DNA from: Eledone cirrhosa
Lineage: Eukaryota
DNA: 64,000 nt
Assembly: GCA_964016885.1 (NCBI GenBank)
Contig: OZ024743.1
Coordinates: forward strand, 29,946,001 to 30,010,000
Reading direction: 5' to 3'
Every line of letters starts with the position of its first letter. The stretch's first letter is position 1. Positions 15,826-31,596 of the stretch are shown piece after piece. Made by a program: the position numbers and the translations under genes. Below the pieces are notes generated by a model. That model had not been told where the DNA came from. It saw only the letters and a list, made by a program, of their open reading frames with translations, and did no database searches.

Positions 15826-16169
15826 AGTTATCTCTTAGATTAATGACCGCTAATAAAAAATTATATTTCTTATTATAAGGTGTTACTTTAATGATGGTTT
15901 GTCAAGTCAATTTCATGAGGCACTGTTAATGTATGAGTCTTAGTAAGAATTCTGAGTAAGGTAATTAAAGACTATACACTAGTTTAGTTAGTATAAGTCT
16001 GCAATTTCAATGTAGGCTTAAGAGTCTAGAAATGTAAAGATATATCAGATGGATTCAGTATAATTATATGGTCATATGTCTACAGTGTTTAAATGGTATA
16101 ATCAGCAGTTCTGTAACCCAGAGTTTAGTCTCTAAGTGTGGAAGAATACAAAAAATACAACCGTTACAT

Positions 16170-18923
16170 ATGTCTCTCAAGTCTATACCTATACCTAGCA
16201 GAAAACTATACCTTAAACAAATCATAGCTGCTACAAATTCGTTTATATGTAGGGTAAGATGGAATGCCTACCACTTGGATAACGACACTGGTAATCTCCC
16301 TACACCTAAAGAAAGATACGGATTCAAGACATACCGGAACCCGCCACACAACACCTTCCTGGACTCCTTTGAAGAAGATTTACTCAATATGATCAGAATA
16401 TAGAATTTAAGAACAAACGCAGATGCAGTAATCCGTTTCTGACTTCCCTGGACTCTCTCATCACTAGGAACAAGAAGGACCCACACCTTTTCGTTGCCTC
16501 TGACAAAACTTAGAACCTATAAAAGCTGGATGTAAGCATATACAGACAATTCATTAATAAGGAATTAAACAAAAAGTACAAAAAACGTCCATTGGTACTT
16601 TAAATGACATTAATAAATTAGCCAAGGATATAGTTACTAGCTTAGATATAGATAAATACACTAACCCTTATGTACCTATGACACCTAAATTCTCTCTTAA
16701 GGATCACAAATATAATTTTAATGAAAGCCCCTCTATCAAACTATTATGCCCCTCCATTTCAGATATAGATAGGATTAGCAAATTGTTCCATGATAGAATA
16801 ATACCAGAACTTAATAGTAAGGCTAAGGTCTGTCTCTGTAACAACACCGACCAGGTCATTAAATGGTTCACTGAGCTACCTGGTAAGGCAGCTCTAAAAT
16901 TCATCCAGTTTGACATAGATAATTACTATGCTTCTATATTCCCCATACTCTAAAATAAGGCCCTTATCTTAGCTAGATCTAACACTAGTCTAGCTAAAAA
17001 ATAGATAGATGTAGTACTGGCTGCGCGGAGAATTATAATTCATTTCGAGGGTTCCCACTGGACCAGAACCAACCGTCCTTATAACTTTGTTAATAGGATG
17101 GGGTCTAGTGTCCTCGCACAAGCAACCGACCTGGTGGGCATTTACCTCCTGCACAGGCTTAGAGATGAGATCCCTCTGCTACAAGGAGGGGTATATAGGG
17201 ACAACGCCCTATTCACCGTAAGGAACCATAACCCCCGTAGGATAGAGAATCTTAACAAACTTATACACAAGTTCTCTGAATCGTACGGCCTCTCTGTAAC
17301 TAAATACCTAAATCACCATATAGTCAACTTCTTAGATGTTACCTTAGAATTAAGTACCGGTTTATACAGACCATACCATAAGTCCGGTGAGGTTCTATCT
17401 TATATCAATTATGCTTCTAACCACCCTAAACCTACGCTCAACTCCATAGAATCTCTAGGTTTTCTGCTAATGTGGACCTCTTCAATCAAACAGCGGATTA
17501 TTGTAATAGGGCATTAGCTGACTCAGGTTATAATCGTAACATGTCCTGTCTCCCCAATGCATGCTCTATAACCCCCCCCCCCCTTAGGAGACTAATGTTA
17601 TTGCGAGCCATACCTATAACCAACAACACTGAGGCCAAAATAGTGTAAAATAGTGTAGAAGGGATAATAGTACCAATAGTTGCGGCCCACATAATAACTA
17701 CAAAGGTAGCAGGACAGGTGTACTACCACACCTACACCGTAATAGTCCGGCTAATAGTAGCAACTACAGCCTACTTGAATTTTTCCCTGCTTGCAGGCTC
17801 AATAAATGTAATAGCCTATTACCTACACCTTCTAACCCGCTTAAGGCTAGTCGGAACCACCACACTGGGAAAGTCTGTGCACTCGGACATAATGCCAACA
17901 AAAGACACATTGTGCAGCAACTCATTAGACATGATGCCCTTAGTAACCCTAGAGCTACGCGTAACCGCCACCGTGATGTCCTGTGGTTCCATCCCCCTTA
18001 TTCTCGTGGCCTCTAATTTACCTAGAATCTTGTTCGAAGCCGTAGAGAAAAACTTCCCACCTAACCATAGATACAGAAAAATCCTCAATAAGAATAACGT
18101 AAACATATCCGTTTCCACTACATCCAACCTAGCTGACCTCATAGCAATAAGTAACTATAACAAGCTCACTACTATACGGCATCCTAGCAACGACAACTTT
18201 AGAGAATATGACAACTCTGGTAACCTTAGAAATTCTTTAGCCCCACATGATAACGTCGGTGGTCACCAGGACCGGCATCTTAGTATTGGCAGCGGTCCAC
18301 AAAATTGTACCACATTAGAAATTAATTGCCGCACCAGTAGTGTGACTGATGACGGGGTTAGTGACCTTAACAGCTCGAATAACCGTTGTAGAAGACGCTG
18401 TAGCATACGGTGTGTGCATAGTACTGCCCCACGTGGCCACAGCTATGGTAATGCCAACTAAAATAATAGTAGCCGTGTTGTTGATAATAATATTAATAAT
18501 ATTACGTTGGATACTAACACCCACCACCTTAGAGGCGACGGTTGTAAACACTGCAATTGTCGTGACCCTACAAATTGTCCACTCCGAGGCTACTGCATAA
18601 CTAAAAATGTTATCTATATACGTACTGTTACTAGTCAGAATAGTGTTAAGTATTACATAGGGGCCACTTCTGGGTCGTTCAAGACCAGATTTGGAACACA
18701 CCTCCACTCTGTTAGGAATAAGAAGCATATATACTCTAACTATATCCCCCAATTAAATGACTCTAACATTAGCTTCACCACTTATTGGGAAATTGTGTAC
18801 CAGGCAACACCATACAACTATAAGAAAAGCGGCCAGCTCTGTCTGATGGAACTGTACTATATAGTGCAAGCATCCTTGGACCTCATTAATAGTCGAGCCG
18901 AATTTGTCATCAAATGCGACTAG
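16170..18923 (+). pseudogene. PLE polyprotein: reverse transcriptase plus C-terminal GIY-YIG endonuclease
   Basis: SLKSIPIPS..RVRWNAY, YGFK, FIQFDIDNYYASI, MGS..AQATDLVG, GVYRDN, VNFLDVTL, SNHP, CNCRDPTNCPLRGYC..NVIY..YYIGATSGSFKTRFGTH; several stops and frameshifts. Confidence 0.92.
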
Positions 18924-19588
18924 AGACTACAATAGTCCTTCTGTAGATGGACCCGGGATAATACTCAAACACCATAGCACCTGGGGCCTCCAACACTGCG
19001 CCCTGGCTCGACCTAAAACGGTGGACTTAAAATTAAACATCTTTCAACAATACTATCATCATACCACCGTCGTCCCCCCAGGGAGCTGCACTACATATTT
19101 TCAGACGAAACTACCCCTTTGTATTCTTCCACACTGATAGACTAAACTCTGTGTAATATTACAGAACTGCTGATTATACCCTTTAAACACTGTAGACATA
19201 TGATCATAAAATTAAACTGAATCCATCTTATATGTCTTTACATTTCTAGACTCTTAAGTCTACATTGAAATTGCAGCTTATACTAACTAAACTAGTGTAT
19301 ATTCATTAATTACCTTACTCAGAATTGTAACTAAGACTCATACCTTAACAGTGCCTCATTAAATTGACTTGACAAACCATAATTAAATTAACACCTTATA
19401 ACAAGAAATATGATTTTTTTTATTAGCGGTCATTAATCTAACAGATAACTTTAATATGCACCGGGATTACTTCCCTTAGTACACAAGGATCTCCACTCCA
19501 TTTTGTAACACGAAGTAATGCATTTCGATGTTAAAATGTTGCTTATACCCTTGCAGGGTTCCTTATTAATTTATTTGCCTATTTAACT

Positions 19589-20949: not shown

Positions 20950-21517
20950 AATATTCATTAGTTAAGCAAAACAAGGCCACAAACTTCACAAGGAAGACAT
21001 TATTAAAAGATTGTCAACATATTTTAGTTTGATGTAAGGAATGTAGAGAATAATAATAATAATATTAATAATAATAATTTCCGTTTACAATTGTTTCGCT
21101 TCTCCATATAATATTTCTGGACCAGATGACTATATATCATAATTGATCTGGTTCAGTTGAAAATAATAAACATATTTAAAAAAAAACAGAGTGGATCATC
21201 GGAACTCAAAGGAATATAAATTAAAATAATGTTACATAATATAATGTTCCATATATTAGTTTTTACTATGGTGTCTTGGTTGCATCAGCTGTCAGCCATA
21301 ATCAAGCAGTATTCATCTGTCGAGGCTGCATTGTGTGAGATCTGCCTATGGGTTACCCATAGTCATCTGATCCAGAAATATTATATGGAGTAGCGAAACA
21401 TTCTAAACGGACATTATTATTATTATTATTCTCTACATTCCTTACGTCAAACTAAAATATGTTGACAATCTTTTAATAATGTCTTCCTTGTGAAGTTTCT
21501 GGTCTTGTTTTGCTTAA
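20950..21517 (-). mobile_element. Truncated copy of the PLE2 3' end with an inverted 5' segment
   Basis: 20950-21350 is a direct repeat of 21528-21930; 21358-21517 is the reverse complement of 20961-21133. Confidence 0.85.
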
Positions 21518-21527
21518 ATATATATAT

Positions 21528-21624
21528 ATATTCATTAGTTAAACAAAACAAGACCACAAATTTCACAAGGAAGACATTATTAAAAGATTGTCAACGTATT
21601 TAGTTTGATGTAAGGAATGTAGAG

Positions 21625-21657
<33 letters not shown>

Positions 21658-23945
21658 GCCCGTTTACAATTGTTTCGCCACTCCGTATAATATTTCTGGA
21701 TCAGATGACTATGTATCATAATTGATCTGGTTCAGTTGAAAATAATTAACATATTTAAAAACACAGAGTGGCTCATCGGAACTCAAAGGAATATAAATTA
21801 AAATAATGTTACATAATATAATGTTCCATATATTAGTTTTTACTATTGTGCCTTTGTTTCATCAGCTGTCAGCCATAATCAAGCAATACTCATCTGTCGA
21901 GGCTGCATTGTGTGAGATCTGCCTATGTGTAACAAGATGGCTGCCAAAGGGCATATTTACCTTACTAATTAGAGGGTGGTTTCAGGGGAAGTAACTTCTC
22001 AAGAGATTAGAGATTGTGTGTATTTTATAGTTATGTGCTAGTATTTAAATCATTTAATTGAGAGACAATGTAGAGGAGGTAACTTATAATTATCGAGTTG
22101 TTCATAGCAATTTAACTTATTAGCTACAATTAGAGATGGGGCTACATGACTAAGTTGGGTCAAAAACACTATTGGCGAAGGAATTAGCCCTTCGATGTTG
22201 ACAGCTAATGGTTACCTCCGTTCTATCGTTAATTGGTAGAGGTCTTGATAGAGTTATGTAATATGCTTCCGTAACACAGAGATCACAAGATTTCCTTCGT
22301 CCATTGAACGGTTGGGCCCTAGCTACGATATCCCATGAACTTTCTTTAAGTTAAGGTTTTTAATGAGCCTAGCTAGCGATGTCGAACATCTGTTGTTAGA
22401 GTCTCGAAGGAAAAAAGTGCGCGTTATAGCGTACCTTAAAAGGGTTAGAGGTAGACCCGATATAAGAGCTGGTATTCGAAGCAGTCTCAACTGTGCACCT
22501 ATAGACTATGTTGGGTGTCAGGCAGTGTCCATTTAATGGGCATGCATTGGGGTACCGGCAGTTGCAGTTGCTTCTGCGGTTAGTGATAGTAGGGTTATTT
22601 AACCTAAGCAGTTGGTCCGTGCTAGAAGGATTAGATGGGGAGGTGTGCTACTAGAGTAATTATTGGTGTAGTGGCGTGGTGTATTTGATAAGGGTGGTGG
22701 TACCGCGGTGTGGGAGTTATAGTGTCTTAGCTTATGATGGTTACTGAACGCGATGTGGCTAGCTAGGTTAGGTGTAGTGGAGAATGAGATTTTAATGTTA
22801 TTTTTATTAAAGAGTTTGTAATATCTATGGTTAGGGGGGAAGTGTTTGGATAGGATAGAGAAGAAGCGATTGGGGATATTAGTGGCTAGATTAGATGAGA
22901 ATGGTGGGTTAAGCCAGGTGATATTTCTAGGCCTATTCCTTCTAGGGGTTCTAGTGGAGTTGGTAGGGACCTTCCTATGGTTATTATTACCTGGGGGTTT
23001 GTTATTTGTCATCCCATTTCTCATTCCTATTCTAGGGTTGATTCTAAGTTTGCTACTAGGAGTGGCGAGCAGGCCGCTGCCACCATTAAAGTTACCTGTA
23101 TAGGTGCTGTTACTGCTAAAATTCCGACGTATCTGGATATATGCTAAGGTATTTCTAGTTCTAGTGTCAAGTTTATTATGGTGAGTTGCTGTGTTATGGC
23201 ATTTAGGTATGTAATAAATTGATTGTTTATAACCAGATTCAGAGAGAGCCTTATTATAATATTGTGCGTGGTTTATAAATATCTCTTCATTTGCTGATAG
23301 CATTGAGATCCTATAGGAGATAGATTTGATTACTGCTCTGATGACTGCCGGTGGGTGGTTAGAGTGTGGGCTAATATATGTGAGTATTTCGCCTATTTTA
23401 TGGTAAGGGTTATAAAGGTTATTGTTGAGATCAAGGGTGACGTCTAGGAAGTTTACTACTTTATGGTTCAGCTCGATGGTGATATAGAGACCGTTATTTT
23501 TGAAGAATCTATGAAATTGTTTCTTAAGCAAATCGATTCCCCGATTAGTGCAATTGTGGACTGCAAATAGGGCGTCGTCCCTGTATATTCTACCTTGCAT
23601 GGGTTGGATTTCGGCTCTGATGTTACGTAATAGGTAAATCCCAACTAAATCTGTGACTTGCGCGGAGTCACTTGATCCCATCGTAATGTCAAAGTTATAT
23701 GTTCTATCTTTTCTAGTCCAGAGTGCTCCGTTGAATTCAATGATAGTCTGCCTAGCCATGAGTATGATGTTAATCTCATTATTGGTTATGTCCGAGTTGG
23801 TGGTTGCTAGGGCTAGTGCTTTGTTGAGCAGTTCCGGGGTTATTGACGCATAATAGCTGTCTATATCAAATTGGATGAACCTCATAGATTGCTTGGACCT
23901 TAGATCAGAGAACCATCTGATGACTTGGTCGGTGTTGGACCACAA
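21528..23945 (-). mobile_element. Penelope-like element 2 (5'-truncated) ending in (TA)n
   Basis: ORF 22599..24002: FIQFDIDSYYASI, MGSSDSAQVTDLVG, IYRDD, VNFLDVTL, WLNPP; frameshifted CNCRYPNACPLNGHC..NIVY..YIGSTSNPFKVRYNAH at 22395-22570. Confidence 0.92.
21661..21783 (-). ncRNA. Hammerhead-like motif with enlarged stem II
   Basis: gtt-CCGATGA-gccactctgt..(~80 nt)..acggagtggc-GAAA-CAATTG-TA-aac. Confidence 0.7.
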
Positions 23946-23949
23946 CTTG

Positions 23950-24460
23950 TAGGTGGTATCATCCCACCACTCTGACCCCTCCCATTCCACACGCACGCAC
24001 ACACCGATCTACGCCCCACCCCACACACACACCTTTTCCTGAACATGGAACCTCGTTCTTCCCCCAACACTCACATTCACATACACACGCTTACACACAC
24101 GAACACCTACACACATACACAAACACCACCTTCAGCCCTCCCCGATCGGACCCCCTCCTCCCTCTCCCTACTCCACCCGCCACCATCGCTACACGCCCCA
24201 CAACCTTCCACCACTTGTTTATCTTTATGTTTATTTTTATTTTTATTTGTACCCCTTCCACCGTTTTACTCCCCCCTTTTTTTCTAAATGTCTCTCCACC
24301 ACTCCCCCACATACCCTCGGAACTCTCTTCCCACCCACTTTTATCCTGAAGAAGGGCTTATGCCCGAAGCGTCGTCTCCCCTCTCAAGAGCGTGAAACTA
24401 ATAAATCATTGTTTGTACTGCCTCGCTGTTTTCGTTCCCGTTCCAGTTTTCTCTCTCTCT
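23950..24460 (+). mobile_element. PLE-type 3' UTR/pseudo-LTR segment, opposite in orientation to PLE2
   Basis: C-rich UTR, hammerhead motif, AATAAA at 24400, ends in (CT)n(TA)n. Confidence 0.6.
24344..24376 (+). ncRNA. Minimal hammerhead-like motif
   Basis: CTGAAGA-a-gggc ttat gccc-GAAG-cg-TC; GAAG replaces GAAA and stem I is weak. Confidence 0.65.
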
Positions 24461-29353: not shown

Positions 29354-29879
29354 CCAAGTAAGAAATAATTGTTTCTACATTTGGCACAAGGCCAGCAATT
29401 ATCAGTGCATTACTGGTACTTTATTTTATCGACCCCGTAAGGATGAAAGGCACAGTTAATCTCGACGGGATTTGAACTCAGAGCGTAAAAGGGCGTAACT
29501 ATGCTGGAAAGCATGACGTCCCACCCTCTACCGATACTGACAATTCACCCGCCCAAGTAAGAAATAATTGTTTCTACGTTAGGCACAAGGCCAGCAATTA
29601 CCCAGTGTATTACTGGTACTTTATTGTATCGACCCCGTAAGGATGAAAGGCAAAGTTAACCTCGGCGGGATTTGAACTCAGAATGGCCAGGGCCGTAACT
29701 CTATGCGCCAAAGCATGGCATCCGACACACTACCAATACTGCCAATCCACCGCCCAAGTAAGAAATAATTGTTTCTACTTTAGGCACAAGGCCAGCAATT
29801 ACACAGTGCCTTACTGGTACTTTATTTTATCGACCCCGTAAGGATGAAAGGCAAAGTCAACCTCGGCGGGAGAAATAAT
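29354..29879 (-). mobile_element. Three head-to-tail SINE copies
   Basis: Two full copies and one truncated, each preceded by ccaagtaagaaataat; agaaataat closes the array. Confidence 0.92.
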
Positions 29880-30868: not shown

Positions 30869-31441
30869 ATGCTATTGTTTTAGAATAGTGACAGACTCAC
30901 ATACTTTAATTTCAGCAAACAGGGGGAGATAAAGCTGACAAGGCCTTTTTTCGCATTTTTTGTTGCTTATCAAAGCCAACTACTCTTCTTGTTTGCTGAA
31001 ATCATGGATGTTTGGTTCTTATAGAATTCTAGTAAATAATCAGGAACTGATTATACAGAGCAAAATACACTATATATACATTCTTATATATATACCTATT
31101 TCAGAGCACCTATTCTAATTTTCAATTTCTGCTTGACCGGAAACCGCTCTGTATAATCAGTTCCTGATTATTTACTAGGAATTCTATAAGAACCAAACAT
31201 CCATGATTTCAGCAAACAGGAGGAGTAGTTGGCTTTGATAAGCATCAATAACTGCGAAACAAGGCCTTGTCAGCTTTATCTCCCCCTGTTTGCTGAAATT
31301 AAAGTAAGTGAGTCTGTCACTATTCTAGAACAATAGCATAAGGTCTTTGAAATGCTTTTAATTAAGCATACAGTGTATTACAAAATACACTATATATACA
31401 TTCATATATATATAGCTATTTAAGAGCACCAATTCTAATTT

Positions 31442-31443
<2 letters not shown>
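30869..31443 (+). mobile_element. Retrozyme/pseudo-LTR-like element: inverted arm plus a 320-nt unit with terminal redundancy
   Basis: 30869-31061 is the reverse complement of 31146-31339; 31061-31122 repeats at 31381-31442; ends in (TA)n. Confidence 0.85.
31207..31298 (+). ncRNA. Apparently intact type I hammerhead ribozyme (U3-A8 core variant)
   Basis: ggct-TTGATAA-gca tcaataac tgc-GAAA-CAAGGCCTTG-TC-agct, closed by a 14-bp distal stem tttcagcaaacagg/cctgtttgctgaaa. Confidence 0.85.
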
Positions 31444-31520
<77 letters not shown>

Positions 31521-31551
31521 CTATAGTTTGGGAGGGTCATGTTGCCAATAA

Positions 31552-31596
<45 letters not shown>

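Follow-up and report, generated by a model that had tools for sequence, protein, structure and literature searches.

The locus and its hammerhead

Positions 30869 to 31443 of the window (the whole 64,000-nt stretch of Eledone cirrhosa DNA that was analyzed) hold one decayed, two-armed copy of a noncoding 320-nt repeat with a type I hammerhead (Table 1). The left arm is 95% complementary to the main arm and is joined to it head-to-head. The first-pass annotation had recognized the main arm and taken it for just over one round of copying from a circle; it missed the inverted arm, and the locus is instead a two-armed insertion of the type made by Penelope-like elements (PLEs). It had also reported a terminal redundancy with a 320-nt period, which is real (31062 to 31123 versus 31382 to 31443, 62 nt, 93.5% identity), although the left copy lies outside the interval annotated, 31146 to 31443. 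The main arm, whose 3' end is E2, has a fixed initiation site at its right end and a random truncation at its left. The left arm reaches neither of the usual 3' sites, stopping at unit position 278 with no (TA)n, and its hammerhead copy on the minus strand is damaged (U3 at 30973, C17 at 30937).

Table 1. Features of the locus and the PLEs of the window, in window coordinates
Feature	Positions	Strand	Remarks
Decayed Hydra-like PLE	16038-19450	+	RT, GIY-YIG (Pfam E 0.003)
Decayed Hydra-like PLE	21455-24008	-	RT, GIY-YIG (Pfam E 0.003)
Inverted 5'-truncated arm	30869-31061	-	193 nt; unit positions 85-278
Main arm	31061-31443	+	382 nt; one complete unit of 320 nt (31062-31381), then 61 nt of the following round
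Type I hammerhead domain	31206-31299	+	Enclosed by distal stem 31206-31220/31285-31299
Core 5' strand TTGATAA	31235-31241	+	U3 at 31235, A8 at 31240
Stem II	31242-31255	+	3 pairs in window copy, 4 in family
GAAA	31256-31259	+
Palindromic stem III	31259-31270	+	12 nt: 31260-31269 plus A15.1/U16.1
GUC site	31269-31271	+
C17	31271	+	Predicted cleavage site
Tail	31406-31439	+	34 nt, bounded by fixed 3' sites E1 (~31405) and E2 (31439)
(TA)n microsatellite	31445-31594	.	Target; 3' end of main arm runs into it

The domain has the type I hammerhead layout, namely, the core N3-UGA-N-N8-A/GAAA/UH, a 3-8 pair, and stems I to III. The U3-A8 core and the GUC site lie where the first-pass annotation had placed them, as does the 10-nt palindrome of stem III, which A15.1 and U16.1 extend. 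Its 14-bp closing stem had to be revised to 15 Watson-Crick pairs, or 17 counting two outer pairs, and its 3-bp stem II holds for this copy but not for the family, in which position 31252 is an A; the private C of the window copy costs one pair. The predicted folding energy of the domain is -44.2 kcal/mol (z = -6.7), a stability equaled by none of 200 shuffles, and a hammerhead descriptor matched the real window once and, at a stricter cutoff, 1 of 40 shuffled windows. None of the Rfam models reached its gathering score on the hammerhead, the top one being Hammerhead_HH9 (15.4 bits, E = 0.32, cutoff of 52); another copy of the family scored 23.9 bits against the hammerhead models. When the whole window was searched with Rfam at E values up to 1, no hammerhead was returned, only microsatellite-driven miRNA matches. 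The motif is real and slightly decayed, not a product of chance, and self-cleavage is predicted from its sequence.

Other features of the window were also recorded. A splice-donor-like word at 31304 to 31309, 33 nt past the predicted cleavage site, is kept in all subfamilies, and this word and one in the tail that resembles an acceptor may be what is left of a PLE 5' intron. The terminal repeats of both PLEs of the window are inverted or tandem and end with TA tracts. A 201-nt SINE-like repeat forms 2.6 tandem copies at 29354 to 29871, with further copies elsewhere in the window, and from 40900 to 64000 a non-LTR retrotransposon with ORF1 and an endonuclease-RT ORF recurs in about five diverged tandem copies at a spacing of 5.6 to 5.9 kb, with (TATC)n between them.

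A retrozyme family with a selected ribozyme

Copies of the family are dispersed across many chromosomes of the 3.0-Gb genome. A 23-mer from the ribozyme had 220 exact matches and a 22-mer typical of older subfamilies had 2,595, with none for either control; the copy number is in the hundreds for the window's subfamily and in the thousands over all subfamilies. We examined 87 nonredundant loci of the window's subfamily, comprising 29 of the best 30 matches (one duplicate was dropped), 3 extra loci, and 55 from a pattern list. Copies diverge from the majority sequence by 2.1% (84 loci), and family variants were confirmed in contigs from three runs of one sample. Related subfamilies are 70 to 85% identical and noncoding, with a period of about 310 to 320 nt. 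No ORF was found in the 320-nt unit, which has a GC content of 34%. The unit has the traits that define a non-LTR retrozyme (noncoding, 150 to 450 bp, in tandem, with a GC content below 50% and a hammerhead in each unit), the class to which the first-pass annotation had assigned it. A literature search by title and abstract returned no paper on this family, which could be catalogued in supplements or Repbase-type libraries.

The family is thus an addition to the metazoan non-LTR retrozymes, or nonautonomous PLEs, a known class. Those described in mussel (350 to 390 bp) and axolotl (330/350 bp) (PMC7229834, Cervera and de la Pena 2020) likewise consist of noncoding tandem units of this order of size, each with one type I hammerhead, in thousands of copies that coexist with PLEs. 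Unlike them, the youngest subfamilies here have a U3-A8 core, and stem III is a 12-nt palindrome of 4 pairs. Fixed ends, tails, and inverted arms are present here and were not among the features of PMC7229834 that were compared.

Conservation of the ribozyme was assessed in an alignment of 11 rows, which are related and hand-picked, so that counts from them stand for about four independent lineages. In these rows, 13 of 24 pairs have changed on both sides, including all 4 pairs of stem II, and compensating changes separate subfamilies in stem II, stem III, and the distal stem. The covariation score of 0.51 was reached by none of 500 shuffles, and slid controls stayed at or below 0.15. The 3-8 pair is C-G in 7 of the rows and U-A in 4; among 221 motifs, a count in which overlapping loci were entered more than once, it is U-A in 142, C-G in 69, and mixed in 10. 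C3-G8 belongs to the older subfamilies and U3-A8 to the younger ones. Because the compensatory changes reach every stem II pair and the 3-8 pair, the ribozyme has been under selection in the master copies. The first-pass annotation had noted that covariation at 3-8 is tolerated; U3-A8 had been described in hammerheads of the Cercyon PLEs of Schistosoma (PMC4209133). Cercyon also shares the occurrence of motif pairs on opposite strands, 100 to 700 bp apart; its hammerheads are minimal and lie in pseudo-LTRs (pLTRs), whereas here the change from C3-G8 to U3-A8 took place between subfamilies of one noncoding family.

Insertion architecture and the RNA template

Of the 87 loci, 56 have two arms joined head-to-head, 29 have a single arm, and 2 are complex. 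Arms range from 29 to 1,142 nt in a set of loci whose selection favors long arms. Their 3' ends lie at two fixed sites, followed by (TA)n, and the spacing of these sites, which corresponds to the tail, is 34 nt in 25 of 25 ends called in older subfamilies. Where both ends of a two-armed locus fall at E1 or E2, one arm ends at each site in 39 of 40 cases (P = 4e-11); the other 16 two-armed loci, the window locus among them, have at least one end elsewhere. The same pairing was seen in 6 of 7 cases in older subfamilies (strict pattern, 102 loci). A minor third 3' end site was noted at unit positions 79 to 81 (loci L010, L021, and L108). No target site duplication could be read, owing to the (TA)n.

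Fixed 3' ends, a 34-nt tail, 5' truncation, an inverted arm, and a (TA)n target together mark an insertion mobilized by a PLE. PLE insertions are described with partial tandems, an inverted 5'-truncated copy, a tail of 30 to 40 bp that is often one-sided, and (TA)n targets (PMC8557442; PMC3846280), and the PLE protein was found to cut and extend both strands, with two internal RNA start sites that bound the tail and a start site that is alike for both strands (PMC11167929). The family thus shares tandems, inverted arm, tail, two start sites, and (TA)n with the EN+ PLEs of these sources (Craig 2021, PMC8557442; Arkhipova 2013, PMC3846280; Frangieh 2024, PMC11167929). It differs from them in having no RT/endonuclease ORF and a full-size hammerhead, where the PLE type is minimal.

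We therefore consider it likely, with a probability of about 0.85, that the locus is a non-LTR retrozyme copy inserted into (TA)n by a PLE enzyme acting in trans. The multimer transcribed from tandem copies would be cut by its own hammerheads, which would probably dimerize through the palindromic stem III to do so, and the resulting monomers would then probably be ligated into circles. The PLE protein would cut both strands of the TA repeat, and reverse transcription would be primed from both DNA ends, starting at two places inside an RNA that runs unbroken through the cleavage site. Each cDNA would stop at random, and the pair would be joined by their 5' ends through short overlaps. The left arm of the window, with neither an E1 end nor (TA)n, runs contrary to the family rule and counts against this mechanism. 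Origin of the inverted arm by fold-back of one cDNA was rejected, as neither arm is consistently longer.

The 5' ends bear on the form of the template. They are spread evenly over the unit, with 6 of the 141 falling around the cleavage site (positions 205 to 217) where 5.7 are expected, and arms cross that site 142 times. The absence of a pileup rejects a cleaved linear monomer as the template, and the RNA must have been continuous across the cleavage site; either an uncut multimer or a circle fits arms that run through the site in this way. The terminal redundancy noted above is expected equally from uncut multimeric RNA and is no proof of a circle. Rare variants are shared within one insertion at 9.8% (tandem) and 15% (inverted) versus 1.5% between loci (3 of the 87 loci were dropped from this count), and no sequence difference separates the first round from later ones, except a weak one at a single site. 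These observations are consistent with repeated copying of one small template, but a homogeneous master array, or gene conversion at a later time, could give the same result. Between the two forms, we judge a circle to be just the likelier and an uncut multimer nearly its equal.

The reading that competes best with trans mobilization of a circle has the unit as a PLE deletion derivative copied from uncut linear multimers, the hammerhead being a maintained passenger and no circle taking part in insertion. We rate it as a serious possibility, somewhat short of even odds. In PMC11167929, PLE hammerhead mutants had no effect on insertion in vitro, no RNA-seq ends were reported at the cleavage site, and cleavage was dispensable, with unprocessed RNA as the main template, which favors the uncut multimer; the lack of excess 5' ends at the cleavage site agrees with it as well, and so does the predicted inactivity of the monomer fold. 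Against it, the compensatory changes in all stem II pairs and the 3-8 pair show selection on the ribozyme, and the absence of a 5' pileup at any start site and the likeness of the rounds, save for the one weak site, are what a circle predicts. Furthermore, retrozymes of similar size in mussel and axolotl occur as circular RNAs, mostly so in mussel (PMC7229834).

Folding energies, which leave out tertiary contacts, offer a view of how a circle might behave. The fold predicted for the monomer is 7.5 kcal/mol more stable than the active one and pairs the core 5' strand with stem III; the full circle is predicted to do likewise, whereas in the predictions of PMC7229834 the core is free in most animal retrozymes. 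As a monomer, stem III has 4 pairs and a tetraloop; in a dimer, it forms a 12-pair duplex, and the energy of this duplex (-19.5) would roughly reverse the inactive fold in the window's subfamily and two others, in line with the earlier suggestion of dimeric cleavage through the palindromic stem III. In the oldest subfamily, the dimer switch fails in the energy model. The helix that blocks the core has 7 to 8 pairs in the two U3-A8 subfamilies, and an in silico swap to C3-G8 lowered the blocking pair probability from 0.99 to 0.49. We put forward the lock on the monomer core as a hypothesis from these models; if it holds, U3 tightens the lock. A retrozyme circle that locks itself, is opened by dimerization, and is inserted by concerted double priming is a tentative extension that we regard as rather unlikely as a whole. 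In its priming step, one PLE dimer would serve both broken DNA ends and copy one circle from sites 34 nt apart, one per strand.

Relation to PLEs

Several PLE families of the genome target TA and have long ORFs, and Hydra-like PLEs, in which CxCX5C, DKT, and RWK motifs were seen, are abundant, with 52,412 first-look candidates. Among the PLEs of the genome, a canonical family that targets (TA)n and has a tail of about 40 nt would be the most plausible driver, judged by geometry. As homologous partners, both the canonical C-terminal-endonuclease PLE and the sampled Hydra-like PLE loci were rejected because their ends are unrelated to the unit, and a unit-like array beside a PLE ORF (L078) was rejected as a separate insertion. 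The abundant canonical PLE carries a minimal hammerhead about 400 to 450 nt past its ORF (L311 to L338), mostly with C for U at core position 4. Read by eye, tails of Hydra-like PLEs here appear to be about 90 to 165 nt long (L128:2920-3290, L153:2640-3100, and the 3' ends of L069 to L071), compared with the 30 to 40 nt described.

These comparisons bear on whether the locus is merely the truncated pLTR ends of an autonomous PLE, which we consider improbable. The end signature is the same as that of PLE pLTRs, PLE ORF pieces lie near some copies, and at L132 (1110-2823) a retrozyme arm has a PLE RT fragment fused to its 5' end with no TA spacer, possibly as a template switch chimera or through a target deletion. 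However, 69 of 141 arms complete the full 320-nt period with no ORF, the noncoding period is unchanged in three older subfamilies, and the neighboring PLEs that were read entered the same (TA)n independently, are set off by it, and have unrelated ends of their own. The first-pass annotation had held that relatives always attached to a PLE ORF would make the unit simply a pLTR; at the 87 loci, no RT plus GIY-YIG ORF was found between repeats (flanks of 1.5 to 2.5 kb). Seven terminal or untranslated regions of six PLEs scored 23 to 30 against the unit, no higher than shuffles, while a control subfamily scored 270. None of these six families proved to be a parent PLE with a homologous pLTR, which makes it unlikely that the retrozyme is a pLTR and nothing more. 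At L013 and L108, units were seen joined directly to terminal repeats of PLEs. A DNA-level repeat or satellite spread by unequal crossover, with a chance hammerhead, has the tandem arrangement of units in its favor but is highly implausible given the dispersal over many chromosomes, the inverted arms, and the covarying fold, and it is refuted by the polarity of the ends, fixed at 3' and ragged at 5'.

Multicopy noncoding units arranged head-to-tail, with PLE enzymes proposed as their movers, are also known from MRC1 of Chlamydomonas (PMC8557442) and from vertebrate retrozymes (10.64898/2026.07.22.740005). Many of those nonautonomous families match a PLE terminal region, whereas this one had no match in the six PLEs tested. 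The latter source, a 2026 preprint, links retrozymes to PLE pLTRs and reports in vitro cleavage for only 1 of 9 predicted dimers, a point against the mechanism proposed here.

Taken together, a retrozyme with the full PLE insertion signature at the nucleotide level supports the proposed, little-tested partnership between retrozymes and PLEs. The family also records a natural switch from C3-G8 to U3-A8 inside one lineage. The two end sites are strictly paired, which yields a testable prediction about the completion of insertion by PLEs, and if the double-priming reading is true, the rule seen in 39 of 40 loci would be a genomic readout of a PLE reaction geometry that in vitro work left unseen. 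In an animal genome with abundant PLEs, such an element is unremarkable; it is usable as a small model.
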